From Hyphomonas sp. (GTDB taxonomy: Bacteria > Pseudomonadota > Alphaproteobacteria > Caulobacterales > Hyphomonadaceae), in contig NZ_OZ260087.1 of NCBI RefSeq assembly GCF_965284475.1, forward strand, positions 2,645,646 to 2,709,645: a DNA stretch of 64,000 nucleotides. The letters are read 5' to 3'. The notes under the pieces are model-generated. The model made no database searches. It saw only the letters and a list, made by a program, of their open reading frames with translations, and was not told where the DNA came from. The position numbers were made by a program, and so were the translations under genes. Of the stretch, positions 17,596 to 64,000 are shown one piece after another. Numbering within the stretch: position 1 is the stretch's first letter; each line of letters opens with the position of its first letter.

Positions 17596-20500
17596 TCAGA
17601 TCGTGCCTTCTTCCCAATCCATTGCCTGTTCGACGGGTGCGGAGGCGGTATCAGTCGCGTCCAGGCTGTGTTCGAGCTTTGCCGCGACTTCCGTAATCGT
17701 GGTCCCGCTCAACAGGTCTCTCAAGCCGATGTCGACATGCAGCGCTGCCTTGATGGCATTCCGGACCTGAACGGCCATCAGGGAGTCAAAGCCAAGGTCT
17801 GACAGTGGCTTGTATGCGTCGATGGTCGACGCGCTGTACCCGAGCGCGCGTCCGACATGACCCCTGAGAAACGCCTCAATAAGCTCTGCTCGCTCGTCTG
17901 CTGGCGCGGAGAGGATGTCATGGTCAAGTGAGATGGTCGGCTCTTCCTGCGTTCGGGACTCCAGGCCGCTCAGCCCGAAGAGTGCGCGGACACGCGGCGT
18001 GCTCTGAGCTGCAAGCAGCTCTATATTCGCTTTCAGAACTGCCGCGTAGGGCATTTCCTGTCCGACCACCCGCTCCATCGCGTCCAGTCCCTCTTCAAGG
18101 TCTATCTGACCCAGGCCGATCCGCTCCCAGCGTTCCCTGACGGAATCGGACAGGCGCGCTGCCATTCCGACTTCACCCCAGGCACCCCAGCCAATGCTGG
18201 TGATAGGCCGTCCGGCAGCGCGCCCCCCTGCGGCAAGACTGTCGAGCCAGGCGTTCGCGCTGGCATAGTTTGCCTGTCCAGGCCCGCCGAACATGGCCGA
18301 GCTTGATGAGAAGGCCACGAACCAGTCAAGCGGGGAACGCCCGGACGCCTTCATCAGGTTTTGTGCGCCATCGATCTTGGGCCCGGCCACGGCGCGGAAC
18401 CTGTCACGGTCTTGTTCACCGATGGGGGCGTCATCAAGCACACCTGCGGCATGGATGATCCCTCGCAATGGCAAGTGTGTGGATACATGTTGCTTCCAGA
18501 GTTCAGCTACGGATTCCGGATCCCCGATGTCACATGCAATCGCGCGAACGATGCAATCGTGTTGCTGGGCCAGATTTGCGGCGGTTTCCTGGGCTTGGGC
18601 GCTATTGCCAGAGCGGCTGACCAGTGTGATTTCGCCTGCGCCCCGTTCGGCGAGCCGCTGTGCCACAGCCAGTCCCAGACCTGCAAGGCCACCGGTGACG
18701 ATATAGGATCCGTCAGAGCGGACAGTCATACGGTTTGTTGGCTCGGGATCAGGCACAATCACGACCTTGCCCATGTGACGCGCGTTGGCCATGAACCGAA
18801 ACGCATCCTTGGCCTTGGCCAGCGAGAAGGCCTGAACGGGCAGCGGTGCCAGCTCCCCTTCTGATATCGCGTCGAGAATACTCTGGAAGGACGTGCGAAC
18901 CTGCTTCGGATCGACGATGATCTGATCACCGAGGTCGACGATGTGATAGTTGACATGCGGCGCGCGTTCTGCGGCTTCCTGCGGCGTCCATATATTGTTC
19001 TTGCCAATTTCCATGAACGCGCCGCCGGGGCGGATCACACGCATGCCTGCGTATATCATGTCTCCGGACAGGGCGTTGATGACGATGTCGACCCCCTCAC
19101 CTCCGGTTGCCTTCTCGATGGCATCGCCGAAGCTGGCTGACCGCGAGTCAAAGGCATACTTTGCCCCTTCGCCCAGCACAAAAGCGCGCTTTTCGTCAGA
19201 CCCTGCTGTCGCAATGACTTCAGCGCCGGCATTCAAGGCCATGCGCATGGCCGCGAGACCGACACCACCGGCCGCAGCGTGAACGAGAACGCGCTGTCCG
19301 GGCTTGATACCTCCAGCCATCGAATAGCAGAGGGCCGCAGTCAGATAGGTGTTGGGAAGCGTCACGGCCTCCGCAAAAGTTATGCAATCAGGTTTCGCCA
19401 GGACGAACCTCTGGCTCACGGTGACATGGCTTGCGAGGCTGTCGCCAGCAAGCGCGACGACTGCATCGCCGGGCTTCAGTCCTGTAACATTTTCACCGAC
19501 GCGGGTAATAATGCCGGCACATTCACTTCCCAGTGCGCCGGCATCGCCCGGATACATTCCCAGTGCGTTCAGAACGTCGCGAAAGTTGAGGCCGGTTGCG
19601 CGCACGCCAATTTCGACTTCGTCCGGTTCTGGAGCGCTGCGCGGCTCCTCGACGAGATGCAGCCGATCAAGGTCGCCTCTTTCCATAATACGAATGACAC
19701 TGCGTTGGCCGCTGGAAAGTGGTGGCGCTGATGTGACCGGAGCAAGGCGCGCGGCAAAGAGATCGCCATTGCGCAGCGCCAGTTCAGGCGCTCTGTCTGC
19801 CAGGGCGAGGGCATCGAATACATCCTGCGGATCAGGTGCCCGGCCTGGATCAAGATCGAGTTGCAGAAGAGGCATCGTCGGGCATTCGGCATCAATCGTG
19901 CGGCCCAGTCCAGCAAGCGTGCCCATGGCAAGAACCGGCGAGTCGCCCGGCGCAACGGCTTTGGCACCGCTGGTGAGAATGCATAGGCCGCATCCGGGTT
20001 TCTCGGACTCAAGGATTTGCGCGGCAGACAAAAGGTCAGCGAAAAGTTCTTCTTCGCGCCCTTCCTGCGTGTCGGTGTCGGCCGAGAGAGACGCGCAGTA
20101 CACGACCCATGATGGTGTGGAAGTCCTGAGCGTTGCTGACAGGTCGCCGAGCGTCACCAGTTGTGCACCTTCAACATCGGCAAGTGATGTTGCGAACTCG
20201 GTATTGTCTGAAACGATCAACAGGTCCTTCGGAATGCTGGCTTCAGGCCGCGGGACATTTTCCCAAGACAATTCAAGCTCATGGAGTGACATCTTGCTCG
20301 CGCCAAGCATCTTGGAAAGCGATGCGGCAGAGACAGCGCGTGCACGAAGTCCTTCAAATTGGGCGATGGGTTCGCCTGTCTCGGTTTCCATTGCGAGGTC
20401 CGCGACGAGCTCAACCTTGTTCGAGCTTTCCTTGCGGAGTCTTGCCGTCACGACGACCCGCCGCGGAGCCGTTCTCTCCCAGCGTATACGGTCAATTCCA

Positions 20501-23500
20501 ATGGGCAGGTAAAGTTGATCGTCTCCATCGTCCGGAACAATCGCACTTACGGCGTGGAACAGATTGTCGACCAGCGCTGGATGGAAACGGTAGTTGGCCA
20601 TGTCTTCTTCGGCGTCGGGCAGCACGGCAAGGCCGACTGCGATGCCGTCGCCTTTCTGCAGCGCTTCAAGCCCGCGGAAAATGGGGCCGTAATTCAGCCC
20701 CAGGGATTCCAGCCGACTGTAGTGTGCCTGAATATCAAGCGTTTCCGGGCACTCACTCTTCGCCTGTGCAGCACTCGGCATGGAAAAGCCGCCCAGGTCT
20801 GGCTGACGCGTCAGCCTGGTGCGCACGAGCGTGCGCCATGGCATGGCGGCGTCGTCGGGCACTTCGCGAACAGTCAGGGAATAGCTGTTCTTGTCCGCAG
20901 GCTCCAACTCGGTATGAACCGTGCAGGATGAGTTTGCATATAGCTCGAGGGGCGCTTCGATTGAAAGATCGGAGAGGGTAACGCTTCCCTTGCCAAGAAT
21001 TGCCTCACCTGCAGCGAGCGCCATCTCGACATAGCCGGTCGCAGGAAAAATGACCCGCCCGAGGATCTTGTGATCCGCAAGGAAGGAAGGTGATTGGGCA
21101 TCAATTGTGGAGATAAACGCCTTGCGCGGCGGCGGGACTTGCTGGATTTCTCCCAGAATCGGATGGAAATGATTGGTGTCCGGGCGCTTGCTGGCAGGCT
21201 GATCGTCAAACCAATAGCGATCATACTGGAAAGGGTAAGTCGGCGCGGGCACGAGGTGTCCGCTGCGATGCCGGTAGACACCCTTCCAGTCAATTTTGGC
21301 GCCTGCTGCATACGCCTGTGCCAGCGCGTTGAGCGCCGTGGCGTTATCATCCTGGCCTCTGCGGAGGCTGGGAACAGTTTTCCACTTTGCTGCAGGACGG
21401 GCACGTGCCGTAAGCCCCAGCAGGGCGGGCTGTGGGCCGAGCTCGATCAGGATGTCGGCCCCGGCCTCTTCCAGCGCCGCTACGCAGTCGCCGAAACGAA
21501 CAGCATTCCGGGCGTGGGCGCGCCAATAGGCGGCGTCAGGTTGAGTGCCTGTCTGGAAAGCTGATCCAGTGAGGTTTGAGATCAGCGGGATGCGGGCAGG
21601 CCGATAGGTGACTTTCCCTGCGGCTTGTTCGAACGCGTCCAGCATGGGGTCCAGGAGCGGGGAGTGGAATGCATGGCTAACCGTCAGGCGGCGCGTCGTC
21701 ACGCCCTTGCTTTCCAGTTCCTTCAGCACTGCCTCCACGGCAGATTCAGTTCCGGAAATGACGGTTTCTTCCACGCCGTTGACACCAGCGATGGCGATCT
21801 CGGTTTCACGGCCACCGAGCATGGGTGAAACCTGATCCTCAGGTGCGAAAATGGCTGCCATGGCGCCACCAGCCGGAAGCTGTTGCATGAGGCGCCCGCG
21901 CTCTGCCACAAGTTGCAATGCGTCCTCGTGACTCATTACTCCAGCCAGGCAAGCTGCGACGTATTCTCCGATACTGTGACCGACAACCATGGAAGGTGTG
22001 ATGCCCCATGACCGCCACAGCTCTGCCATCGCGTACTGGACTGCGAATAGCGCAGGCTGTGTATAGGCCGTTTCCGATATCGGGCTTTCCGCACCCTCAC
22101 TGGGGTACAAGACATCCTGAAGCGGTAGTTCAAGCGCGTCTTTCAGAATAAGTGCGGACTGGTCGATCGACGCACGAAACACAGGCTCGGACTCATAAAG
22201 TCCGCGTGTCATGCCAGGGTATTGAGCACCCTGGCCGGTGCAAAGGAAAGCAACGCGCGGCGAGCTGCCGCCGCTGGTATGACCGATAGTCATTCCCGGG
22301 AGACTGTCACCCTTTGCCAGCGCCGCCAGCTTTTCGCGAAGGTCATTGCTGTCGGATACGACGAGAGCCGCACGATGCATGAGCTGTGACCGCCCGACGG
22401 CAAGTGTCCGTGCAAGATCGTTGAGCGCGGGTGCGCCATCTCTTGAGACAAAGTCACCATATCGCGCAGCGAGTTGCCGGAGCGCGCCCGGCGTTTCGGC
22501 AGATATCGGGATTATGCTGGTGCGATCACTCCCGGCGGGCGATCGTTTGTTTTGCGGGGCGTCGGACAGGATCGCGTGGACGTTTGTGCCGCTGAACCCG
22601 AATGCGCTGACCCCGGCGCGTCGGGGCGTATCACGTCTAGGCCAAGGGGTCGTTTCGGTCACAACTTCGAGCGGCAGATCATCCCAGTCTATTCCCGGGT
22701 TCGGGATATCAAAATGCAATTGCGGCAGAATGGATTCCGACCGGAAGCAGACTAGGACCTTGAGCAGCCCTGCAATGCCGGACGCCGCTTCTGCGTGGCC
22801 AAGGTTTGTCTTGATTGAGCCGATACGAAGCGGCTGAGAAGGGTCGCGTCCATTACACAGGACAGCCCCGAGAGCGCCAGCCTCGATAGGGTCTCCGATT
22901 GGCGTGCCAGTGCCGTGGGCCTCAATATAGTCGATGTCCAGGGGGCCGAGGTGCGCGCTTGCCAGAGCGGCCTTCAACATGCGCTCCTGCGCGGGACCAC
23001 TCGGGACAGTCATTCCGCTCGAGCGGCCATCCGAATTTGTTGCCGAACCGACGAGCAGTCCAAGTATCGGATTGCCGTCCTTCTCGGCATCGGACAGTCG
23101 CTTCAAGGCGATCATGGCGCAGCCCTCGCCGCGGGCAAAGCCGTTAGCTGACGCGTCAAATGTCTTGCAAGCGCCATCTGGTGAGAGCATTCCCCATCTT
23201 GAAAACATCGCCATAGCATCGGGCATGGCGATGACGGCCACGCCACCGGCCAGGGCCAGGTCGCTTTCGCCATTCCGAAGGCTTTGGCAGGCGAGGTGAA
23301 TGGCATTCAGTGATGACGAGCAGGCAGTATCGATGGCGGCGCTGGGCCCAAGGAAACCGTAAGTGAATGAGATGCGGCCAGGGGCTGCATTCATGGCGCC
23401 TCCGGTGGCCGAATAGACGTCGGATTGTTCCGCGCCATTGGACCACATCAGGCGCCCATATTCGGTCGTCGAGATGCCGACGAAGACGCCGGTTGCGCTT

Positions 23501-23928
23501 CCTTCAAGCTGATCCGGCGCGATGCCAGCTGTTTCCATCGCTTCGTGCGCCGTTTCCAGAAGCATTCGCTGCTGTGGATCCAGCGATTTTGCCTCCCGTG
23601 GAGAGATGCCGAAGAATTGCGGGTCGAACTGATCAATCCGGTCCAGAAATCCGCCCTTCTTGGTTACAATCTTGCCGGCTGCGTCACGGTCCGGCGAATA
23701 ATACGCCTCAGCGTCCCAGCGGTCGGCGGGGACGGTGCGGACCGCGTTCACCTTGCCGGAAAGCAGGGCCTGCAAATCGTCCAGGGAGCGGACCCCACCA
23801 GGATAGCGCAAGCCGCAGCCCACAATGGCAATTGGCTCAGACTTTGCACGCTTGGCGACATCAAGTTTTGACTGGAGGCGCTCAATTGCGACGAGGGCGT
23901 CTTTCAGCATATCCCGCGGTGTGGTCAT
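17596..23928 (-). CDS. Modular type I PKS 'F': KS-AT(malonyl)-DH-ER-KR(B)-ACP, with C-terminal DWEEGTI docking motif
   Basis: KS DTACSSS/HGTGT/NLGH; AT GHSIG and HAFH; DH DHKILGRVIFP; ER LNFRDVL and HAAAGGVG; KR VLDD and GQANYASAN; ACP GFDSL. The ATG at 23928 overlaps the upstream TGA. Confidence 0.92.
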   Translation of the reverse strand: MTTPRDMLKDALVAIERLQSKLDVAKRAKSEPIAIVGCGLRYPGGVRSLDDLQALLSGKVNAVRTVPADRWDAEAYYSPDRDAAGKIVTKKGGFLDRIDQFDPQFFGISPREAKSLDPQQRMLLETAHEAMETAGIAPDQLEGSATGVFVGISTTEYGRLMWSNGAEQSDVYSATGGAMNAAPGRISFTYGFLGPSAAIDTACSSSLNAIHLACQSLRNGESDLALAGGVAVIAMPDAMAMFSRWGMLSPDGACKTFDASANGFARGEGCAMIALKRLSDAEKDGNPILGLLVGSATNSDGRSSGMTVPSGPAQERMLKAALASAHLGPLDIDYIEAHGTGTPIGDPIEAGALGAVLCNGRDPSQPLRIGSIKTNLGHAEAASGIAGLLKVLVCFRSESILPQLHFDIPNPGIDWDDLPLEVVTETTPWPRRDTPRRAGVSAFGFSGTNVHAILSDAPQNKRSPAGSDRTSIIPISAETPGALRQLAARYGDFVSRDGAPALNDLARTLAVGRSQLMHRAALVVSDSNDLREKLAALAKGDSLPGMTIGHTSGGSSPRVAFLCTGQGAQYPGMTRGLYESEPVFRASIDQSALILKDALELPLQDVLYPSEGAESPISETAYTQPALFAVQYAMAELWRSWGITPSMVVGHSIGEYVAACLAGVMSHEDALQLVAERGRLMQQLPAGGAMAAIFAPEDQVSPMLGGRETEIAIAGVNGVEETVISGTESAVEAVLKELESKGVTTRRLTVSHAFHSPLLDPMLDAFEQAAGKVTYRPARIPLISNLTGSAFQTGTQPDAAYWRAHARNAVRFGDCVAALEEAGADILIELGPQPALLGLTARARPAAKWKTVPSLRRGQDDNATALNALAQAYAAGAKIDWKGVYRHRSGHLVPAPTYPFQYDRYWFDDQPASKRPDTNHFHPILGEIQQVPPPRKAFISTIDAQSPSFLADHKILGRVIFPATGYVEMALAAGEAILGKGSVTLSDLSIEAPLELYANSSCTVHTELEPADKNSYSLTVREVPDDAAMPWRTLVRTRLTRQPDLGGFSMPSAAQAKSECPETLDIQAHYSRLESLGLNYGPIFRGLEALQKGDGIAVGLAVLPDAEEDMANYRFHPALVDNLFHAVSAIVPDDGDDQLYLPIGIDRIRWERTAPRRVVVTARLRKESSNKVELVADLAMETETGEPIAQFEGLRARAVSAASLSKMLGASKMSLHELELSWENVPRPEASIPKDLLIVSDNTEFATSLADVEGAQLVTLGDLSATLRTSTPSWVVYCASLSADTDTQEGREEELFADLLSAAQILESEKPGCGLCILTSGAKAVAPGDSPVLAMGTLAGLGRTIDAECPTMPLLQLDLDPGRAPDPQDVFDALALADRAPELALRNGDLFAARLAPVTSAPPLSSGQRSVIRIMERGDLDRLHLVEEPRSAPEPDEVEIGVRATGLNFRDVLNALGMYPGDAGALGSECAGIITRVGENVTGLKPGDAVVALAGDSLASHVTVSQRFVLAKPDCITFAEAVTLPNTYLTAALCYSMAGGIKPGQRVLVHAAAGGVGLAAMRMALNAGAEVIATAGSDEKRAFVLGEGAKYAFDSRSASFGDAIEKATGGEGVDIVINALSGDMIYAGMRVIRPGGAFMEIGKNNIWTPQEAAERAPHVNYHIVDLGDQIIVDPKQVRTSFQSILDAISEGELAPLPVQAFSLAKAKDAFRFMANARHMGKVVIVPDPEPTNRMTVRSDGSYIVTGGLAGLGLAVAQRLAERGAGEITLVSRSGNSAQAQETAANLAQQHDCIVRAIACDIGDPESVAELWKQHVSTHLPLRGIIHAAGVLDDAPIGEQDRDRFRAVAGPKIDGAQNLMKASGRSPLDWFVAFSSSSAMFGGPGQANYASANAWLDSLAAGGRAAGRPITSIGWGAWGEVGMAARLSDSVRERWERIGLGQIDLEEGLDAMERVVGQEMPYAAVLKANIELLAAQSTPRVRALFGLSGLESRTQEEPTISLDHDILSAPADERAELIEAFLRGHVGRALGYSASTIDAYKPLSDLGFDSLMAVQVRNAIKAALHVDIGLRDLLSGTTITEVAAKLEHSLDATDTASAPVEQAMDWEEGTI

Positions 23929-24797
23929 GGATTTATTCTTTTCAGGTGTGCGTTCAGCGTAAAGATGAGTGGGGTGGCACATGCGATGCAAATGATCGCT
24001 AAAAGGACAATTCTGTTCGAATTATATCCTTCATTGTCTATAAGCCAGCCCGCCAGGAATGCCAGTGGAACCGGAGCAAGTAGAAGCGGCGCGGATGGCG
24101 CAATTGGTGCCAGGAAGGCGGCTCGGTCTAGCAGTAGCAGAGCCAGCAATCCCAACACGCCTGTCACCGCGAAATGAAGACTATGTCGCAATTCCAGTTC
24201 CACCCACATGCCCGGCATAAACGGTGCAAGAATGATCACAATACCTGCTGTGACATAGAACAAGTTCGTGCTTGTTTTTTCGCCGCGAAGAGCGCGCGAC
24301 AGAACAAGAAACAGGCTGAACGAGACGGGCATGCCCAGAATTGCGAGCCATACAAACCCGAACGGGATAATGTCTCCCTGAGCATAGATCGCCATTGCCG
24401 CAACACTACCCATAGTAGCAACCAGCCACGTCATGTGGTTTGCACGTTCTCCTAATAATATAGCCGAGAATAGAATCACCAGAATGGGAGTTCCCCAGAA
24501 GGCGGCATGAACGGCGTGCCCGTACCCTGCATTGGAGGCGAATGCCCAGGACACCGGCATCAACAGCAGGAACACCGCGCGAAGTATCTGTGTCACCGGC
24601 TTTTGGGTGCGGATAAGATCGCCACGTGACCTGAAGCCAGCGATCGCCACCCACATACACAGCAGTATCAGATAGTGCAGCCACACGACCTGAAACGGCG
24701 GGTACTGATTCAAAAGCGTGCCGACAATCGCTTCGGTCACGGTCCAAACGAGGACGAATCCCAGCATCAGGGAGATGGTACGATAAGAACCCGTCAT
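23925..24797 (-). CDS. EamA/DMT family transporter embedded in the PKS operon
   Basis: 290 aa with about 10 TM segments in two repeats (PFQVVWLHY; ILFSAILLGER). ATGA overlaps at both ends. Confidence 0.8.
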   Translation of the reverse strand: MTGSYRTISLMLGFVLVWTVTEAIVGTLLNQYPPFQVVWLHYLILLCMWVAIAGFRSRGDLIRTQKPVTQILRAVFLLLMPVSWAFASNAGYGHAVHAAFWGTPILVILFSAILLGERANHMTWLVATMGSVAAMAIYAQGDIIPFGFVWLAILGMPVSFSLFLVLSRALRGEKTSTNLFYVTAGIVIILAPFMPGMWVELELRHSLHFAVTGVLGLLALLLLDRAAFLAPIAPSAPLLLAPVPLAFLAGWLIDNEGYNSNRIVLLAIICIACATPLIFTLNAHLKRINP

Positions 24798-54327: not shown

Positions 54328-55139
54328 GGACTACTGGGTGTTGCAGCTGCGGGCATTTTTGCTTCCAGAACGTCCTGGATATGCAAAATGAGTGCCGAGC
54401 GCTGGTCTTCCAGATAGAAATGCCCTCCGTCGAACATCTGAAGACGAAAGTCCTGTTCGGTCCAGGATCCCCACCCCGCGAGAAGATGTTCGGGAACCAG
54501 CCTGTCGTCCTTGCCGCCAAGAGCGCTGATGGCGATCGGTAACCGGCGGGGAGTGGCGCGCTCGATCCTTTCAAGCGTGCGAATATCGGCCTTCAGCGTT
54601 GGCAACAGCAGTTCCAGGACTTCCGGTGCTTCAATGATTTCGCGCGGAATGCCGCCATAGCGCTTGTTCACCTCTTCGACGAACGTCATGTCATCGAGGT
54701 GTGAGAGCGGGCCAACGGGGCTGGGCAAGTTGGGCGGTTGCCGTGCGGAAAGAAAGAGGTGCATCGGGGCGTGCATTTCCTGCCGTACGATCTCGGAGGC
54801 AAGTTCCGAAGCGAAGACAGCGCCCATACTGTGTCCAAAAAAAGCGTAAGGCCGGTCTGTCAGGGTGGACAATTCCGGAAGAATGGATCGAACGAGTTCA
54901 GGAAAACTGTCCAATGGAGGCTCTGCAAGCCGATTGGCACGGCCGGGGGGCTGGACGGGCACGATTTCCAGCCAGGCCGGGGCCTGGGATTGCCATGCCC
55001 GATACATCGCGGCGCCATAGCCAGCGCACGGAAAACAGAACAGGCGGATTCGCATTTCAGCCGTAGGCGAGGAACGGAAAAACCAGCTTGCAGCCTGCTG
55101 CATGCCACCACGGTTGGGGGCCATGTTACGGATATCCAT
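54324..55139 (-). CDS. Type II (editing) thioesterase
   Basis: RLFCFPCAG, VQPPGR, GHSMG nucleophile motif, LLLPTLKAD and GGHFYL. Confidence 0.9.
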   Translation of the reverse strand: MDIRNMAPNRGGMQQAASWFFRSSPTAEMRIRLFCFPCAGYGAAMYRAWQSQAPAWLEIVPVQPPGRANRLAEPPLDSFPELVRSILPELSTLTDRPYAFFGHSMGAVFASELASEIVRQEMHAPMHLFLSARQPPNLPSPVGPLSHLDDMTFVEEVNKRYGGIPREIIEAPEVLELLLPTLKADIRTLERIERATPRRLPIAISALGGKDDRLVPEHLLAGWGSWTEQDFRLQMFDGGHFYLEDQRSALILHIQDVLEAKMPAAATPSSP

Positions 55140-55353: not shown

Positions 55354-56832
55354 TTAAACGCGCCTCCCGCGTGGCCGCAAAATGCCTGTGATCCGACGTG
55401 CAATGGCGCGCAGGATGCGGGCAAATTCCATGTGGAGTGGGTGCTTGAGCAGGTAGAGGGAAGCAATCCAGCTCACACCTGCGACACCGACCGCCAGAAG
55501 GCCCTCCGCAAGGCCGACATTTGCGCTGCCACCAGAATAGTGAACGATTGCAAGCGGGCCGGCAACAGTCGCGGCGGTCGCAACCGCACTTCGGGAGAGT
55601 GCGCGTCCGATATCCAGCCATGTAAATCGTATCACATAAGCCTGCACGAACCAGGTCGACAGGACCACGTTGATCGCAACAATAGGCCATGTGGCCCACG
55701 CGACGGCATGGATTCCATACTGTGCGCTGATGACAATTGTCGGGAGTACGATACACGCCTGCAGGATCGCGAGCAGGAATGCACGTCGCACCGCACCCTG
55801 GGCAATCAGGATGGGATAGTTCAGTCCGGGGGGAAAATTCAGGAGCAGTCCACCTGCGATAATCTGCACTAGTGGAATGGTTTCGAGCCAGTCATTACCC
55901 AGGAACAGGCGGATCAGGGGGGCGGCAAGGACGATGATCAGGCCGAGGCAGGGCCAGATCAATCCGCTAATCCGCTCGACGGCAGCAAGGTAGTATTTCC
56001 TGAGGTCACTCTTTTCGCGGGCGGCCTCAGAGAAGGCCGGCAGGGCCGCAGCGCTGACGCCGGCCATGACGGTGCGTTCCGGAAACTGGGCGATCATTGA
56101 TGCGCGGTTCAACAGGCCGACCATGGCCGGCGGCATGAAATTGCCAACGGCCATAACGGAGAGGACTTCCGTTGCGCGCTGCACAATGCCGGTGCCGCCA
56201 CTGAACAGGCTGAATGACAGGACGTCTTTCCAGGCGCTGAACGATGGCCGGAAAATTTCGAAACTCGGGCGGAAGTAGAGCAGCAACAATGTGCCGACCA
56301 ACGCCGAAACAACCTGCGCGTATGCGAAACTCAGATAACTGGCGCCAGCGATGGCTGTGCCGATCAGGACCGCTGAATTGAAGACTGTCGATGCGATGTT
56401 GATTACAGCGAGCTTTCCAAATGCGAAGTCGCGCGCAAGCAGCGCATGTAGCGGGTAGACGATGGCACCCACCGCAAACGGAACAGCGCAAATCTTAAGA
56501 TAGAGATCCAGGCCCGGCGAATTGAGCAGGCGAGCCAGGGCCGGTGCTGACAGAACCATGCAGGGGAGGATGGCGAGGGTCAGGAAAAGATTCAGGGTAA
56601 ACGCAGCGCGCAGTTTCGCGAGCGTCAGCTCCTTTGCCTGGATAATGTAAGCTGACGAGCCCACGTCGCGTAATGTGTTTGCCATGAGCAGAACGGCTGC
56701 GCCCAGAACTGTAACGCCGAATTCTGCCGGATTGATCAGACGGGCAACAATTGCCGTTGTGACCAGCGTGATCGCTGTCGATACATACTTGTCAGCCGTG
56801 GCGACAATGACGGCAGTCCTGATTTTATCCAT
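55354..56832 (-). CDS. Wzx-type oligosaccharide flippase (PST family, MOP superfamily; 'polysaccharide biosynthesis protein')
   Basis: 492 aa with 12-14 TM segments. ARLINPAEFG, ALLARDFAFGKL, VGLLNRA, LPAFS and LFLGNDW match the PST flippase pattern. GGGGGAAG precedes the start. Confidence 0.85.
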   Translation of the reverse strand: MDKIRTAVIVATADKYVSTAITLVTTAIVARLINPAEFGVTVLGAAVLLMANTLRDVGSSAYIIQAKELTLAKLRAAFTLNLFLTLAILPCMVLSAPALARLLNSPGLDLYLKICAVPFAVGAIVYPLHALLARDFAFGKLAVINIASTVFNSAVLIGTAIAGASYLSFAYAQVVSALVGTLLLLYFRPSFEIFRPSFSAWKDVLSFSLFSGGTGIVQRATEVLSVMAVGNFMPPAMVGLLNRASMIAQFPERTVMAGVSAAALPAFSEAAREKSDLRKYYLAAVERISGLIWPCLGLIIVLAAPLIRLFLGNDWLETIPLVQIIAGGLLLNFPPGLNYPILIAQGAVRRAFLLAILQACIVLPTIVISAQYGIHAVAWATWPIVAINVVLSTWFVQAYVIRFTWLDIGRALSRSAVATAATVAGPLAIVHYSGGSANVGLAEGLLAVGVAGVSWIASLYLLKHPLHMEFARILRAIARRITGILRPRGRRV

Positions 56833-57758: not shown

Positions 57759-58011
57759 GAAATCGACTTTCGAAACGTTGACTCTTTCGGACGCAATGTG
57801 GCACAGCTCGGGACAGAGGGCGGTGCTTGGGGGAGCAGCGTTTTCGCATTCGAAAGCAACGCATCGTATTCGATACTGCAGCTGTCAGTGGTTGAAATAC
57901 GGGTGCTCACCTCCGGTTGTATCGCAAAGGGACTCGAATTGCATAAAGGCGAGGGGGCGCAACTTGAGATCATGTCGTTCCAGCTGAGTCGATTGCGATT
58001 GTTTAAGTAAC

Positions 58012-61000
58012 ATGGACGTCGCCCGATTTATAGAAGATCTTTCCAGGGTCGGCGTCACACTCTGGACGTCCGATGGCAAGATTCGCTTTCGCGGTCCCAA
58101 AGGCGCGCTTGGCGAAAAAGACAAGTTCACGATACGCGAAAACCATGCGGCAATCGTGGAAGTGCTTGCCAATTGGCAAGTTGTTCGCGACCTGCCACTT
58201 GCTGATGGCCAGCGATCCCTCTGGTTTGTTCACCGCCAGGCTCCGCTAAGCCCGACCTACAATTTCGGAACGGCCATACGGGTACGGGGCCCTGTTGAGC
58301 CAATGGCACTGAAGACGGCCTTCCAGAAGGTAGTGGAGCGCCATGCTGCCCTGCGTGCCAGCTTTCCGGTCGTGGCGAATAATCCCGTTCAGAGAATTCC
58401 GCACGATCAAAAGGTGCATCTGGACTATCACAGGATTGATGGCAGCGCCGATGCGGAGGTCATCGCGCATGTGCTGAGCGTGCACAGGCGCCCTTTCAAC
58501 CTGGCGACTGGTCCGGTTTCCCGATTGGCTTTGTTCCGGGTGGCACCAAACGATCATGTCATCCTTTTTGGAGCGCACCACATCGTATGTGACGCGACAG
58601 GGGGTGCGACAGCCTGCCATGATCTCAAACAATTCTACATCGAAGGGGTTGCAGGCAAGCCGGCTGAGCTGACGCCCCGGACTGCCGATTTCCCGGATTT
58701 TGTCGATTGGCAGCGATCAGTACTGTCAGGCCCTCAAGGCGAGGCGTTGCTGGCGCATTGGCAAGAGCGACTGAAGCCTCCGCTTCCTGTGCTTGCCCTT
58801 CCGACTGACAGGCCAAGGCCCGTCAACAGACAGTTCCGTGGTGACACCTTGCAGAGGGTTTTTTCATCTGAACAGATAGCGGCGCTCGATGCGCTGGCAA
58901 CGCGCACGCGCGCGACCCGATCTGCAATATTGATTGCACTTATGGCGGCAATGCTCGGGCGTGTTTGCGATCAGGATGATGTCGTGATCGGGACCCCCTT
59001 CTTCGGGCGCGCGGATGAGCGGTTCGAAACGACAGTCGGTCATTTTGCAAACCCGCTTCCTATCCGCCTCACCGTTTCGCCCGCATGTTCCTTCGATGAC
59101 CTGATTATTGAGGCACGCGAGCGGCTGCTCGACGCGCTCGACAATCAGGATATGCCGCTTCTGCGACTTGTAGATGCCCTCAATCCGCCCCGCGATTCCA
59201 CGCGGATGCCCTTTTTTGATGTTCTGTTCACGTTTCTTTTGTTCGATCATCTGACGGGCGGTTTGCAGTCAGAAAATGACGCTGAAACACGCGCCATTTT
59301 CCCGGTCGAGCCATTATTGTTTCCGCTAATGGAGGGTCAGTTTGACCTGTCCGTCCGGTTCGAGGAGATGAATAACGGTCTCACAATGAACTGGAGCTTT
59401 GATACCGATCTGTTCGACAAGTCGACAATCGAGACTTTCGTGAACATTTTTTCGGAACTGGTAACGGAATTTTCAAGGGATTCATCAATTCCTGTGCGGG
59501 CCTACAACGCGGCAAGACCCTTGCAAGGCATAAAGCCGGAACAGGGAGAGCCCGAAATGGAAGTGCATGCACTGTTTGGCAGACTGGCGGACAGGGGAGT
59601 CGCCTTGTCGCTTGATGGTGATCAGTTGCGCATCAAGGCTCCAAAAGGCGCAATCGGCACGTCATTACGCGACGAACTGGTCGCCATGAAACCGGCCATC
59701 GTGGACATGCTCAGGTCCGAAGCTACCGGCTTCCGGTCGCGTTCGCCCCAGAAGGCCAATCTTCCCCTGTCATATGCGCAGCAGAGACTCTGGTTTCTGA
59801 ACCGGCTTGATCCAACCAGTACCGCTTTCAATGTCGCGGCCGGCGCCTGGATGAGTGGTCCTCTCAATCCGAAACTGATCGCCGAAGCGTTCAGGCTCCT
59901 TGCGCAGCGCCACGACGCGTTGCGCATGCGGTTTACAGAGCGCGAGGGCAAGCCCGTTGCTGAAGCGGTCGACGACCTGATGCCCCATTTTGAGTATCTG
60001 GACGTCGAGCATGTCGCGTCGGAACTTCGCAGGCAGGAAGCTGAGCGCATTGTCGATGAGCGAATACGCCGGCCGTTTGATCTCGCGACCGGCCCCCTGT
60101 GCGGCTTTACGCTCATCCGTCTGTCAGAGGATCGGTACGCATCACTGCTGCTCGCCCATCACATTATTGTTGATGGGTGGTCGATGGCCGTCGCACACCG
60201 TGAGGTCGTCGAAATCTACGACGCACTCCTTGAGGGGCGCGAGCCGGGCCTGCCCGAGGTCAAGGCGCAGGCCACGGATCATGCCCGCCGTGAGCGCCGC
60301 ATGGCCGTGTCGCCTGAATGGGCAGAACACATTGATTTCTGGCGCGAAGAACTCAGTGGCGCACCTGCGGTCATTGAGCTGCCTACGGATCGCAGGCGTC
60401 CTGCCAACCAGACCTTCAATGGCGGAAGACTGACTGAGCGGTTCGATGCGAAACTGCTGGCGGACCTGAACGCCCTCGCGCGATCCGAGGGCGTCACACT
60501 GTTCATGCTGCTGATGGCCGGATGGGCGGCAACGCTTTATCGCTATAGCGGACAGACGGACATTGTCCTGGGCTCGCCACATGCCAATCGCAACCATGCC
60601 GATCAGGAGAGCATGGTCGGTTGCCTGATCAACAACATGGTCGTGCGCTGCCGTGTCGACGGGTCCTTGAGCTTTAGCGACCATCTTGCAAATGTCCGTA
60701 GCGCGACCCTCGGATCGCTTGAGCATAGCGAACTTCCGTTCGATCTGCTGGTCGACACCGTCAATCCGGAACGCAGCGCCAGCCACGCTCCGATATTCCA
60801 GACGCTTTTCAGCTTGATGACGTTCCCGAAGATCGAACATGGCTTCAAGGGCACCGAAGTTGAGCCGATGATCCCAGGAACGGGTGCCTCAAGGTATGAC
60901 TTGTCTCTGGACTGTGTGGAGTTCGGCGGCGAGCTCCTGACGCACTACGAGTTTGCGACGGACCTGTTTGACACCGACACGATTCTGAGATTGCATCGTC

Positions 61001-62985
61001 ATTACCAAACCCTGATGCGCGCGGCGATTGCCGATCCCTTGGCGCCCGTCAAATCATTGCAAATGCTGACGCGGGATGATGCGGCAGAAATTGCCAATTC
61101 GAACGCGCGGACAGTCAAAGAGTTTGATCGTAGCGCAACCACGCTGGATATGATCGAGTCTTGCGTCCGGGAGGTTCCGGACCAAGGGGCCGTAACCGAT
61201 GCGCACGGAACACTGAGCTATGCCGAACTCGACGTGCGCGCAAATCGCCTGGCGCACCTGCTGCACAACAACGGTGTGGGTCGCGGCAGTCTGGTCGCGG
61301 TAAGTCTCGAGCGCAGCGTGAATCTTCCAATGGCGCTTCTTGCGGTCTGGAAGGCCGGCGCGGCCTATCTGCCACTTGATCCGAAACACCCGCAGGAACG
61401 CATCAACAGCATTGTTGCCGATGCCGGTGTAGACTTGGTCCTGACAGAAACAGCCTCGGCAGCGCCGTTCGGCGACAACCAGCCAGTGCTGGCGCTCGAT
61501 CAGTTGGAAAGTCGCCTTGACGCGATGCCGCATACGGCACCGGACCGCGAGACAACGCCTGAAGATCTGGCCTATGTGATCTATACGTCAGGCTCCACCG
61601 GGCGCCCGAAAGGGGTTGAAGTCGAGCACCGCAATCTCGCGGCTTTCCTGGTCGCCATGCAGGAGGAACCTGGAATCCGTGAGGGACAAACGCTCCTCGC
61701 CGTGACAACCCCGTCGTTCGACATCTTTGGACTGGAAGCATGGCTACCACTTTCATCGAAGGCGCGTATGGTTATCGCATCGCGTGAAACGGCGCTGGAC
61801 GGGCGTGCTCTGGCCGACCTTATGGACTCAGAAAATGTCGACATTCTTCAGGCCACACCCGCGACATGGAATGTTCTGATCGAGACAGGCTGGCAGGGAC
61901 GTGGGGGCCTGAAGGCGCTTTGTGGCGGCGAAGCGCTGCCGCTGGCCCTGGCCGACGCACTTCTGCAGCGCGGCTGTGATCTCTGGAATATGTATGGCCC
62001 GACCGAGACGACGATCTGGTCTTCAGTGCAACATATCGAGAAGGCCGATGATGCTATCAGCATCGGCAAGCCCATCGCGAATACGCGCATGTATATCCTG
62101 GATGACCAAGGCGTGCCGGTACCGCCTGGTGCGATTGGCGAGCTTTGTATCGGCGGTGAAGGCGTCACGCGCGGATATCGCGGCCGGCAGGATCTCACGG
62201 ACGAACGCTACCTCTCGCTGGACCTTCCCGGTCACGACAAGGAACGCATTTACCGCACCGGAGATTTCGCGCGTGAAACAGTCGATGGCCGGCTGATTTT
62301 TCTCGGGCGTCGCGACTTTCAGGTCAAGATCCGTGGTTTTCGGATCGAACTCGGCGAGATCGAGAGTGAAATTGGCGCATTGGAGAGCGTTGCCGAGTGC
62401 GCCGTTATCGCCCACGAGCGTGCCAAAGGTGATCTCGAACTTGTCGCATACGTCGTGCCCGCAGCAGGCCGCACTGTTGAACCCGGGGCCTTGCGTGCGT
62501 CACTTCGGTCCCAGTTGCCGAACTATATGGTACCGGCGCATGTTGTTGTGCTCGACGCCCTGCCGCTAACGCCCAACCTGAAAGTTGACCGCAAAGCGCT
62601 GCCGCTGCCGCAAGTCAAGCAGGCATCGGATACGTCCGCTGGCAACGTCGTCATGTCACCTGCTGAGCAAAGCGTGGCCGAGATCTGGTGCGCGGTGCTT
62701 GGCCGGACCCAGGTCGGACTTGAAGATAACTTCTTTGATATTGGCGGGCATTCCATGCTGTTGGTTCGCTTGCACGAACGGCTCCGGAATGATCTTGGTG
62801 CGACGATGGCACTGATAGAACTTTTCCAGCGCACGACAGTCGCGCAGCAGGCTGCCGCCATTCCGGGCGGTGCGGGATCCGGGCTGGTGGGGTCCGCTTC
62901 TGCTACGCAGCCGGCTCAGCCCGTCCAGTCAGACCGCCTCACACGGGCAAAAAAACGAGCGGAGCGCATCCGGCATGGCCAGTAA
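58012..62985 (+). CDS. NRPS: betaHD(TubC_N)-C-betaHD(TubC_N)-C-A(Gly)-PCP
   Basis: Two beta-hairpin docking-like segments (LSRVGVTLWTSDGKIRFRGPKGA; LADRGVALSLDGDQLRIKAPKGA). C motifs HHIVCDA and HHIIVDG. A-domain YTSGSTGRPKG and NMYGPTETT, with hand-read code DILQLGMIWK. PCP FFDIGGHS. The C-terminal tail is basic. Confidence 0.92.
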   Translation: MDVARFIEDLSRVGVTLWTSDGKIRFRGPKGALGEKDKFTIRENHAAIVEVLANWQVVRDLPLADGQRSLWFVHRQAPLSPTYNFGTAIRVRGPVEPMALKTAFQKVVERHAALRASFPVVANNPVQRIPHDQKVHLDYHRIDGSADAEVIAHVLSVHRRPFNLATGPVSRLALFRVAPNDHVILFGAHHIVCDATGGATACHDLKQFYIEGVAGKPAELTPRTADFPDFVDWQRSVLSGPQGEALLAHWQERLKPPLPVLALPTDRPRPVNRQFRGDTLQRVFSSEQIAALDALATRTRATRSAILIALMAAMLGRVCDQDDVVIGTPFFGRADERFETTVGHFANPLPIRLTVSPACSFDDLIIEARERLLDALDNQDMPLLRLVDALNPPRDSTRMPFFDVLFTFLLFDHLTGGLQSENDAETRAIFPVEPLLFPLMEGQFDLSVRFEEMNNGLTMNWSFDTDLFDKSTIETFVNIFSELVTEFSRDSSIPVRAYNAARPLQGIKPEQGEPEMEVHALFGRLADRGVALSLDGDQLRIKAPKGAIGTSLRDELVAMKPAIVDMLRSEATGFRSRSPQKANLPLSYAQQRLWFLNRLDPTSTAFNVAAGAWMSGPLNPKLIAEAFRLLAQRHDALRMRFTEREGKPVAEAVDDLMPHFEYLDVEHVASELRRQEAERIVDERIRRPFDLATGPLCGFTLIRLSEDRYASLLLAHHIIVDGWSMAVAHREVVEIYDALLEGREPGLPEVKAQATDHARRERRMAVSPEWAEHIDFWREELSGAPAVIELPTDRRRPANQTFNGGRLTERFDAKLLADLNALARSEGVTLFMLLMAGWAATLYRYSGQTDIVLGSPHANRNHADQESMVGCLINNMVVRCRVDGSLSFSDHLANVRSATLGSLEHSELPFDLLVDTVNPERSASHAPIFQTLFSLMTFPKIEHGFKGTEVEPMIPGTGASRYDLSLDCVEFGGELLTHYEFATDLFDTDTILRLHRHYQTLMRAAIADPLAPVKSLQMLTRDDAAEIANSNARTVKEFDRSATTLDMIESCVREVPDQGAVTDAHGTLSYAELDVRANRLAHLLHNNGVGRGSLVAVSLERSVNLPMALLAVWKAGAAYLPLDPKHPQERINSIVADAGVDLVLTETASAAPFGDNQPVLALDQLESRLDAMPHTAPDRETTPEDLAYVIYTSGSTGRPKGVEVEHRNLAAFLVAMQEEPGIREGQTLLAVTTPSFDIFGLEAWLPLSSKARMVIASRETALDGRALADLMDSENVDILQATPATWNVLIETGWQGRGGLKALCGGEALPLALADALLQRGCDLWNMYGPTETTIWSSVQHIEKADDAISIGKPIANTRMYILDDQGVPVPPGAIGELCIGGEGVTRGYRGRQDLTDERYLSLDLPGHDKERIYRTGDFARETVDGRLIFLGRRDFQVKIRGFRIELGEIESEIGALESVAECAVIAHERAKGDLELVAYVVPAAGRTVEPGALRASLRSQLPNYMVPAHVVVLDALPLTPNLKVDRKALPLPQVKQASDTSAGNVVMSPAEQSVAEIWCAVLGRTQVGLEDNFFDIGGHSMLLVRLHERLRNDLGATMALIELFQRTTVAQQAAAIPGGAGSGLVGSASATQPAQPVQSDRLTRAKKRAERIRHGQ

Positions 62986-64000
62986 GGAAAATTCCCCTGC
63001 TCTGTCTCCCCATGCCATTGCAATTGTTGGCATGGCGGGAAGATTCCCCGATGCGCCGGACATCGACACGTTCTGGCGTAATATCCTTGCCGGGAAAGAA
63101 TCCCTGCGGACATTTGACACCGAAACACTTGAGAAGGCGGGTGTACCGCAGGCATTGCAGGATCACCCTGATTTCGTTCCCAAAGGCACGCCGCTTGATG
63201 AAGTCGATATGTTCGATGCGGAGTTCTTTGGCCTGTCGGCTGGCGAAGCCCGGATAATCGATCCGCAGCAACGCGTCTTTCTTGAATGTGCGTGGCAGGC
63301 CATGGAGCATGCAGGCTATGCGCCGGGCGAGCTTGAAGAACCGGTAGGCGTCTTTGCCGGCACTGGCATGAACACTTACCTGATGGCGCACATCCTGTCA
63401 GATCGTGCCGCGGTAGAGGCAGCCGGCGGTTATCAATTGATGCTCGGTAACGACAAGGACTTTCTTTGCACACGGGTTAGCTACAAACTGGACCTGCGCG
63501 GGCCAAGTGCCACTGTCCAGACGGCATGCTCAACATCTCTCGTCGCAGTTGAAATGGCCTGCAGGGCCTTGTCGCGCGGCGAATGTGACATGGCGCTCGC
63601 AGGCGGGGTCTCGATCGCCTTTCCCGACAAGGCGGGGTATCTCTACCAGGAAGGCATGATCTTCTCGCCCGATGGTCATTGCCGCCCGTTCGACATCGAC
63701 GCCAAGGGCACCCGGGCAGGTGCCGGAGCAGGTGTCGTAACCCTGAAGCGCCTTGCAGACGCAGAGCGGGATGGCGACACGATCCACGCAGTAATCCGCG
63801 GCATCGCTGTCAATAATGATGGGGCGGCCAAGGCGGGCTATACGGCCCCGTCAATTGACGGACAGGCCGAAGTCGTTGCGATGGCGCAGGCGCTCGCTGG
63901 CGTATCGCCGCGCTCAATCGGCTATCTGGAAGCTCACGGGACAGCAACACCGCTGGGTGACCCCATTGAGATTGCAGCCCTGACCCAGGTTTTCCGCGAA
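62975..64000 (+). CDS. Type I PKS, hybrid-type (post-NRPS) KS domain; truncated by the window edge and absent from the ORF track
   Basis: Translating by hand from ATG 62975 gives MASKENSPALSPHAIAIVGMAGRFPDAPDIDTFWRNILAGKESL...DPQQRVFLE...GNDKDFLCTRVSYKLDLRGP...VQTACSTSLVAV...[14 protein letters not shown]. It overlaps the NRPS 3' end by 11 bp. Confidence 0.92.
   Translation, partial: MASKENSPALSPHAIAIVGMAGRFPDAPDIDTFWRNILAGKESLRTFDTETLEKAGVPQALQDHPDFVPKGTPLDEVDMFDAEFFGLSAGEARIIDPQQRVFLECAWQAMEHAGYAPGELEEPVGVFAGTGMNTYLMAHILSDRAAVEAAGGYQLMLGNDKDFLCTRVSYKLDLRGPSATVQTACSTSLVAVEMACRALSRGECDMALAGGVSIAFPDKAGYLYQEGMIFSPDGHCRPFDIDAKGTRAGAGAGVVTLKRLADAERDGDTIHAVIRGIAVNNDGAAKAGYTAPSIDGQAEVVAMAQALAGVSPRSIGYLEAHGTATPLGDPIEIAALTQVFRE

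Follow-up and report, generated by a model that had tools for sequence, protein, structure and literature searches.

The subject of this analysis is a 64,000-nucleotide stretch of DNA (hereafter the window) from a Hyphomonas sp. genome that is complete in a single contig of 3.43 Mb. ORF calling and translation of its plus strand give one continuous open reading frame (ORF) for a nonribosomal peptide synthetase (NRPS) of 1657 residues, here called NRPS1, and the element of interest is a second beta-hairpin docking domain (bHD2) that lies inside this protein. Beta-hairpin docks sit just upstream of a condensation (C) domain on a flexible linker, and their partner is a short acidic-hydrophobic motif at the extreme C-terminus of a carrier protein; one such motif can recruit several docks, and published accounts place the dock at the N-terminus of its subunit (PMC9113145, PMC13324335). 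The bHD2 of NRPS1 departs from this N-terminal placement, as it begins at residue 516 of the 1657, and it does so in the same way in more than 45 homologues.

Domain organization of NRPS1

The Pfam matches in NRPS1 comprise two TubC_N domains, two Condensation domains, and one each of AMP-binding, AMP-binding_C and PP-binding, which gives the layout bHD1-C1-bHD2-C2-A(Gly)-PCP followed by a basic tail, where A and PCP stand for the adenylation domain and the peptidyl carrier protein. The first dock (bHD1) matches TubC_N (PF18563, curated cut-off 26 bits) over residues 3-52 with 37.4 bits, and bHD2 matches it over residues 519-568 with 49.6 bits (E = 4e-13), covering profile positions 2-51 of 52. 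An AlphaFold2 (AF2) model, run on a 16-sequence alignment and reaching a mean predicted local distance difference test (pLDDT) score of 82.7, predicts for residues 515-572 the same helix-strand-strand-helix-helix succession as for residues 3-55 of bHD1 (helix 515-527, strands 531-535 and 538-542, helices 550-558 and 560-572; pLDDT about 70-77). The linkers on either side (residues 500-516 and 571-580) have pLDDT values below 50, and the model together with the Pfam boundaries predicts a flexible linker that joins bHD2 to C2 immediately behind it (from about residue 581), as is usual for beta-hairpin docks. An earlier note on this DNA, made from the letters alone, had claimed a second, internal dock at residue 516 on condition that the fold be supported there; the profile score and the predicted fold both support it, and the dock is taken as real.

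The Condensation profile (PF00668) scores 601.9 bits over two stretches of NRPS1, C1 and C2, and sequence searches of the PDB place both among ordinary C domains (Txo1/2, TycC); the same searches also retrieve Bamb_5915 and EpoB, via the dock. In an alignment of 46 family proteins, on which the family counts given here are based, the HHxxxD motif is kept in both C1 and C2 of every member. The full HHxxxDG is present in C2 of 46/46 members and in C1 of 26/46, and the C1 of NRPS1 reads HHIVCDA, with the final G changed to A, as in 20/46. Pairwise similarity among C1, C2 and C3, the C domain counted third in this comparison, is 27-30% in all three cases and is uninformative on a shared donor. The specificity residues of the A domain, DILQLGMIWK, were taken from the segments FDIFGLE, LQATP, LCGGE and NMYGPTETTIW; we take this mapping of positions, and the code DILQLG[LMV]IWK, to stand for glycine in the Stachelhaus code. 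On the best reading, NRPS1 is one glycine module that a chain can enter at two points.

The gene cluster

On the minus strand lie, in order, genes for a phosphopantetheinyl transferase (PPTase), a Wzx-like MOP protein, a type II thioesterase, five polyketide synthases (PKSs) of the cis-acyltransferase (cis-AT) type, an EamA transporter and PKS6. NRPS1 is transcribed divergently on the plus strand, away from these PKS genes, and is followed by PKS7, which has a ketoreductase (KR) without a dehydratase (DH), by NRPS2 (bHD3-C-A-PCP, 1101 residues), which ends in its PCP without a thioesterase (TE) domain, and by two alpha/beta-hydrolases; RND and MFP export genes come after the hydrolases, on the opposite strand. 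The homologous genes of a Gemmatimonadales metagenome-assembled genome (MAG; L006/L013) all lie on one strand, in the order PKS genes, EamA, PKS6-like, NRPS1, PKS7, NRPS2, hydrolase, hydrolase, and this collinearity fixes the order of the assembly line. The features are collected in Table 1.

Table 1. Features of NRPS1 and of the two PKS genes next to it in the assembly line, in window coordinates (KS, ketosynthase; ER, enoylreductase; ACP, acyl carrier protein; HMM, hidden Markov model; SD, Shine-Dalgarno; dock and tail classes as defined in the text)
Feature	Coordinates	Strand	Basis or remark
NRPS1 gene	58012..62985	+	ORF, translation, Pfam
bHD1, residues 1-57, class I dock, hairpin 'VTLWTSDGKIRFRGPKGAL'	58012..58182	+	TubC_N, class HMM, AF2
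C1 condensation domain, about residues 59-500, active site HHIVCDA	58186..59511	+	Pfam Condensation; PDB relatives
Flexible C1-to-bHD2 linker, residues 500-515, holding the SD-like GGGAG at 59544-59548	59509..59556	+	pLDDT <50; variable in family alignment
bHD2, residues 516-572, internal class II dock, hairpin 'VALSLDGDQLRIKAPKGAI', first codon the in-frame ATG at 59557	59557..59727	+	TubC_N, class HMM, AF2
C2 condensation domain, about residues 581-1030, active site HHIIVDG	59752..61101	+	Pfam residues 583-1027; PDB relatives
Adenylation domain, code DILQLGMIWK	61162..62580	+	Pfam AMP-binding and AMP-binding_C
PCP, residues 1554-1617	62671..62862	+	Pfam PP-binding
Basic C-terminal tail 'SDRLTRAKKRAERIRHGQ', putative PCP-to-KS junction element	62929..62982	+	kept across family
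PKS6 (KS-AT-DH-ER-KR-ACP), last polyketide module	17596..23991	-	class A tail 'WEEGTI' encoded by 17599-17616
PKS7, 5' part (KS-AT-KR-ACP; 1545 residues counted from the upstream GTG at 62870)	62975..64000	+	likely ATG 62975

Distribution of the two-dock architecture

The closest named relatives of NRPS1 are found in Hyphomonas oceanitis (75% identity) and H. pacifica (56%). With residues 1-700 as the query, dozens of proteins of 1636-1675 residues were retrieved at 99-100% coverage and 32-36% identity from Gemmatimonadota, Acidobacteriota, Planctomycetota and others, and the layout bHD1-C1-bHD2-C2 in a protein of about 1650 residues is present in more than 45 proteins from several phyla. A scan with one genome per species gave 17 loci of this layout, including Steroidobacteraceae, Polyangiaceae, Rhodopila, Gemmatimonadaceae and Hyphomonas. 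At an overall identity of about 33%, the hairpins of both docks are strongly conserved, yet distinct from each other: 'G[VI]ELW[FV]EGxRLRFRAPKGAL' for bHD1 and 'RD[IV]RLxLDG[DE][KR]L[RK][VI]NAPKGAL' for bHD2.

Judged from this conservation, NRPS1 is neither a recent fusion nor a sequencing artefact. In the artefact case, an error of sequencing or assembly near 59500-59560 would have merged a pair of ordinary genes, and only the in-frame ATG with its SD-like motif speaks for this; however, more than 45 homologues, assembled independently, have a collinear and uninterrupted frame, five Hyphomonas-clade lineages are intact with differing DNA at the spot, and the window itself comes from a single-contig genome, so that we regard the chance of such an error as negligible. 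The fusion of a bHD-C gene with a bHD-C-A-PCP gene that the earlier note had suggested holds in one respect, in that the protein does look like those two units joined, but with more than 45 homologues the joint is neither recent nor peculiar to this genome. A homologue split at this point also exists (locus L020, see below), although its first protein carries an A-PCP as well and the more than 45 homologues are unsplit.

Docking classes and C-terminal tails

The ORFs of 80 fetched loci (L008-L087) were parsed, and a pair was counted wherever a dock-bearing gene directly follows a carrier-ending gene. A dock was assigned to class I when it scored best on the bHD1 model, and to class II when it scored best on the bHD2 model. 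Class I docks ('LWxEGxRLR[FY]RAP') follow class A tails ('..xEG[ESTV][ILV]') in 30/30 adjacent pairs, and class II docks ('G.KLRVNAPKG') follow class B tails ('..[RE]EE[FILM]x[FLI]') in 19/21; overall, this docking code held in 49/51 adjacent gene pairs. The two-class code seems to be general across unrelated PKS/NRPS clusters.

The docks of this genome were scored with class HMMs built without Hyphomonas sequences. bHD1 scored 44 bits on the class I model and 27 bits on the class II model, bHD2 scored 45 and 55 bits, and the dock of NRPS2 (bHD3) scored 36 and 48 bits, which assigns bHD1 to class I and both bHD2 and bHD3 to class II. The same assignment holds in all 13 homologous clusters in which the downstream NRPS is visible. 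Across the homologous clusters, moreover, the PKS6-like tail is always class A (e.g., WEEGSL, WEVGSL, FEHGTL), the PKS7 tail is always class B (e.g., DREEFEL, EREEIEF, DREEFVI), and the NRPS2 dock is always class II. The PKS7 of the window itself ends in the class B tail 'DDREEFVI', which lies past the window end (L004, ending at 10153). Because bHD1 and bHD2 belong to two docking classes, they very probably recognize two different partners, which agrees with the part of the earlier note that suggested two different acyl donors for the two docks. From the co-occurrence of class II docks with class B tails, the candidate partner of bHD2 is the PKS7 tail '..DREEFVI'.

In the whole genome there are exactly three TubC_N docks. 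Of tails that follow a carrier motif, it has a single one of class A (..WEEGTI, on PKS6) and a single one of class B (..DREEFVI, on PKS7); no third docking tail was found on NRPS2 or elsewhere in the genome. With three docks and two tails, either one tail serves two docks or one dock is left without a tail. Docks thus outnumber tails, as in the rhabdopeptide/xenortide type of system, and there are two class II docks for the single class B tail.

The C-terminal tail of NRPS1 is of another kind. It is basic throughout the family ('..RARARAARQ..'; in NRPS1 '..RAKKRAERIRHGQ'), similar basic tails end other NRPS modules whose next enzyme is a PKS that begins with its KS after a very short N-terminus, and the tail is missing where no PKS follows. 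It is taken here as a putative PCP-to-KS junction element. The basic '..RARARA..' tail was also considered as the partner of bHD2, since the first protein of the split locus L020 ends with it beside the second, and was rejected because it also precedes KS-first PKSs in clusters without an inner dock and is missing without a PKS.

Proteins of about 1600 residues with the order dock (class II)-C-C-A-carrier are encoded in two Thiomargarita/Thiotrichaceae MAGs (L053:8414-13213 and L056:2041-6939), and the class HMMs detected no inner dock at their tandem C domains.

Natural variants of the cluster

A di-module form, bHD1-C1-A-PCP-bHD2-C2-A(Gly)-PCP followed by PKS7, is found at L083, L096/P0094 and L097/P0114. 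At L097 the PKS7 tail ('..ESREVLEI') is of class B and there is no further NRPS within 5 kb of other genes, so that this locus shows no class II partner besides the inner dock. A split form occurs in a Rubrivivax MAG (L020), where bHD1-C1-A-PCP (1192 residues) and bHD2-C2-A-PCP (1158 residues) are two genes, followed by a PKS7 that ends in '..PREVLEI'; no NRPS comes after this PKS7 on the contig, and the MAG, which is incomplete, holds only two TubC_N domains. The A-PCP-tail halves of the two L020 genes (L020:2645-4557 and L020:6143-8052) share 97.5% DNA identity over 1.9 kb and are both read as glycine, whereas their dock-C parts share only about 30-35% protein identity, a pattern that points to a recent duplication or gene conversion of the A-PCP halves. 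In this arrangement, C1 and C2 each serve as the C domain of an ordinary C-A(Gly)-PCP module. A further form, at L098/P0109, L045 and L076, is without PKS7: bHD1-C1-A-PCP-C-A-PCP is followed by two hydrolases, the linker between PCP and C is of the ordinary short kind, and neither the inner dock nor the basic tail is present. Altogether, the inner class II dock and PKS7 are present together in 20 loci and absent together in 3, and no discordant case was seen.

These variants bear on an explanation in which bHD2 is the scar of an old fusion, inherited from an ancestor that was either a two-module NRPS (bHD1-C1-A-PCP-bHD2-C2-A-PCP) or a pair of genes, and now serving only as a structured linker, while the line runs once. 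C1 and C2 would then act in series through transfer between two NRPS1 molecules, giving acyl-Gly-Gly, or just one of them would condense. The di-module proteins of L083, L096 and L097 keep bHD2 directly after a PCP, where a hand-over in cis needs no dock; the split L020 shows that a gene boundary can lie exactly here; and the Met at the first residue of bHD2 in the Hyphomonas clade resembles an old start codon. However, across phyla the bHD2 hairpin is as strongly conserved as that of bHD1, the catalytic motifs of both C domains are kept in all 46 members, the loss of the inner dock coincides exactly with the loss of PKS7, neither L097 nor L020 shows another partner for the class B tail of PKS7, and the PCP tail of NRPS1 is of the basic PCP-to-KS type rather than class B. 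We consider this explanation unlikely, though it deserves to be kept in mind.

A proposed re-entry mechanism

The presence of the inner dock only where PKS7 is present fits a reading in which the polyketide enters from PKS6 through C1 and the chain comes back from PKS7 through bHD2-C2, which lets the glycine module and PKS7 iterate. Judged from sequence comparison, we give this reading an even chance, and both the pairing of docks with tails and the iteration are what we infer rather than observe. In this scheme, the six minus-strand cis-AT PKS modules would build an acyl chain that ends on the ACP of PKS6, whose class A tail (..WEEGTI) would dock on bHD1, and C1 would join the chain to the glycine held as a thioester on the PCP. 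By standard assembly-line logic, the basic tail of NRPS1 would hand the acyl-Gly to PKS7, which would add a C2 unit and reduce it to give an N-acyl-4-amino-3-hydroxybutyryl thioester. The class B tail (..DREEFVI) of the PKS7 ACP would then dock on bHD2, and C2 would join the chain to a freshly loaded Gly-PCP to begin a new round; alternatively, the PKS7 ACP would dock on bHD3 of NRPS2 for the last module, followed by release by the two alpha/beta-hydrolases. As the PKS7 ACP would carry the chain during reloading of the PCP, one NRPS1 molecule would suffice. We predict a lipid-like product of the type acyl-(Gly-C2OH)n-Gly-like, where n is probably 2 or varies within a small range. The broader proposal, in which the internal dock is a programmed re-entry port, separate entry and re-entry C domains share one A-PCP, the NRPS-PKS pair iterates, and an internal start in Hyphomonas may also make the re-entry module separately, seems to us to fall just short of an even chance.

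Several points weigh against this scheme. The pairing of docks with tails is read from co-occurrence, and both tail classes are acidic-hydrophobic, so that cross-binding is possible. The basic tails of L020 are shared by copies that are 97.5% identical and may be too young to signify function. The sequences of L020 and L097 are from MAG or metagenome contigs, so that an NRPS for termination could be encoded at another place. In the di-module proteins, bHD2 follows a PCP, and a hand-over in cis could occur there, with bHD2 perhaps an inherited linker. Furthermore, the scheme requires the PCP to reach the acceptor site of C1 across bHD2-C2, it leaves the choice between C2 and the next NRPS unexplained, and no natural product with repeated Gly-C2OH units was found in the literature searched.

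A different use of the two entrances, the convergent assembly of a di-acylated product, had been put forward in the earlier note. Here the two docks would take two acyl donors and both would end up on one product; for example, C2 would N-acylate glycine, and C1 would transfer a second PKS6 chain to the hydroxyl that the KR of PKS7 produces, as an O-acylation. NRPS1 has two docks and two C domains with active motifs for only one PCP, PKS7 (with its KR and no DH) makes a free hydroxyl, and the cluster contains export genes of a lipid type (Wzx-like, EamA, RND). The A-domain code, however, specifies glycine, which has a single amine and therefore one nucleophile, making di-acylation unlikely; the variant clusters place C1 behind a class A tail in a normal C-A(Gly)-PCP module, as an ordinary N-acylating domain, and C2 likewise sits in such a module; and the class II bHD2 is not matched to the PKS6 tail. 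We regard di-acylation as highly improbable.

C1 might instead be a domain for chain release, cyclization or chain transfer, with bHD1 docking the last carrier protein (cf. Bamb_5915, Kj12C) and C2 as the sole elongating C domain. In favour of this, NRPS2 has no TE after its final PCP, release by stand-alone bHD-C enzymes has precedents (PMC9113145, PMC13324335), and C1 has the variant motif HHxxxDA. Yet NRPS2 lacks a conserved docking motif at its tail, release could fall to the two hydrolases, or in L007 to a fused TE, and the class A tail that matches bHD1 sits on PKS6, directly upstream of NRPS1 in the collinear clusters. C1 also belongs to a full C-A-PCP module in the variants, and it keeps HHxxxDG in 26/46 members. 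This role for C1 is, in our view, improbable.

Comparison with known systems

NRPS1 shares docking between a short linear motif (SLiM) and a beta-hairpin, and the dock-linker-C arrangement, with the pairs TubB-TubC, EpoA-EpoB, Bamb_5917-Bamb_5915 and DepC-DepD/PcdC-PcdK. We note two differences from these described pairs. First, the dock of NRPS1 is internal, between two C domains without an intervening carrier protein. Second, the predicted partner of bHD2 lies downstream in the line, not upstream. In the rhabdopeptide/xenortide NRPS (Kj12A/B/C), three docks compete for two SLiMs, which leads to iterative module use and a product series (PMC6195595, PMC9113145). The Hyphomonas cluster resembles Kj12A/B/C in having more docks than tails, so that one tail has a choice of docks; however, each Kj12 dock heads its own single-module protein and the iteration is between NRPSs, whereas NRPS1 combines two docks and two C domains with one A-PCP in the same polypeptide, and the proposed loop runs via a PKS.

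Tandem C-family domains N-terminal to a single A domain and serving one carrier protein are also found in the vibriobactin synthetase VibF (Cy-Cy-A-C-PCP-C, where Cy is a cyclization domain), in which the two Cy domains split condensation and cyclization on the same residue; to our knowledge, VibF has no docking domains between its two Cy domains. The icosalide synthetase of Burkholderia gladioli is likewise an NRPS with two acyl-donor entry points, as it has a second, internal chain-starting C domain. There, every starter C domain has a separate module, and the product takes up two lipid chains; we know of no internal beta-hairpin dock described for it. In solanimycin SolG, locillomycin LocB and thalassospiramide TtcB, modules are re-used within one line, and for the single-module iteration of solanimycin a transfer from protomer to protomer had to be proposed (PMC10204066). 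No dedicated second C domain or dock for re-entry is described in these three, unlike what is proposed for NRPS1. The 'two condensation domains' of zeamine and the solanimycin system were considered as equivalents of the NRPS1 layout and set aside. In the literature, we found no description of an internal dock between tandem C domains, of this cluster family or of its product, though the enacyloxin/HMM dock survey could list internal matches.

Docking domains set the subunit order in assembly lines and are used in engineering. If the proposal is true, iteration of an NRPS-PKS pair could be programmed by simple, transplantable means, namely a conserved internal dock that matches the tail of the enzyme after it, and this would explain how one module can act twice with a single protomer. 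For orphan clusters, the order of subunits can be predicted directly from the two-class docking code (49/51 pairs). Clusters of the present family are widespread among uncultured bacteria from soil and marine habitats, and their product is probably exported and lipid-like.

A putative internal start codon

The ATG at 59557-59559 is in frame as codon 516 and has GGGAG 8 nt upstream, and the start at 58012 has no SD motif; direct reading of the sequence confirms the earlier note on both counts. The 16S rRNA of this genome ends in CCTCCTT. Among 17,794 internal in-frame ATGs in long ORFs of the genome, 1.6% have an SD-type 5-mer 5-10 nt upstream, compared with about 24% of 68 unambiguous gene starts, which makes the motif at codon 516 unusual and the start at 58012 without an SD normal for the genome. 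Codon 516 is also the sole one with an SD motif among the 36 in-frame ATGs of the NRPS1 gene.

Across the family, Met516 is limited to seven Hyphomonas-clade proteins, with one other protein having a Met nearby, and it is absent in about 38/46 members, so that two translation products are not part of the conserved design. Within the Hyphomonas clade, the ATG is kept in 5/5 lineages and an SD 5-mer lies 6-8 nt upstream in 4/5, though the linker residues encoded there differ: the lineage of the window has GGGAG (encoding QGE), L094 has GGGAG / GGAGG (RRE), L095/L057 have AGGAG (QQE), L039/L038 have AGGAG (SQE), and L046 has only AAGGGAAA (QGK). None of the other conserved Met codons (22 are conserved in the gene) has an SD in more than 2/5 lineages. 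Compared in this way, the joint conservation of the ATG and the SD in the Hyphomonas clade appears to be more than chance. A shorter bHD2-C2-A-PCP protein made from the internal start, in the Hyphomonas clade only, is a tentative reading, and we lean somewhat against it; alternatively, the conserved ATG and SD could be the trace of an old gene start or of another constraint at the nucleotide level.

The 30 nt upstream of the NRPS1 start (57982-58011; AGCTGAGTCGATTGCGATTGTTTAAGTAAC) are without an SD and are nearly unchanged across Hyphomonas-clade lineages whose proteins share 56-77% identity. They may represent a conserved leader or a regulatory element in the divergent PPTase/NRPS1 intergenic region.

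Neighbouring genes

At the other end of NRPS1, the likely PKS7 start (ATG, 62975-62985; ATGGCCAGTAA) overlaps the last codons and the stop codon of NRPS1 by 11 nt, and the mechanical ORF call begins at GTG 62870. The 11-nt overlap suggests translational coupling of PKS7 to NRPS1. NRPS2 (L004:10150-13455, past the window end) has a glycine-like, atypical code of about DIIQIGGIY-, and the NRPS at the same position in other phyla has the plain glycine code DILQLGMIWK. On the minus strand, the first PKS (49777-54327) has its KS at the very start, without a loading module, and the type II thioesterase gene (54324-55139, minus strand) overlaps the start of this PKS by 4 nt.

Four relatives of about 2500-2600 residues (P0008, P0015, P0033 and P0044), covering about 91-94% of residues 1-700, carry the glycosyltransferase domains PF00534, PF13439, PF20706 and PF13692 and have no TubC_N match on record. 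The Wzx-like gene of the window lies at 55354-56832, and in L098 Wza/Wzz genes adjoin the hydrolases. Taken together, the glycosyltransferase-bearing relatives and the Wzx-like and Wza/Wzz genes hint at a cell-surface or glycosylated lipid product.

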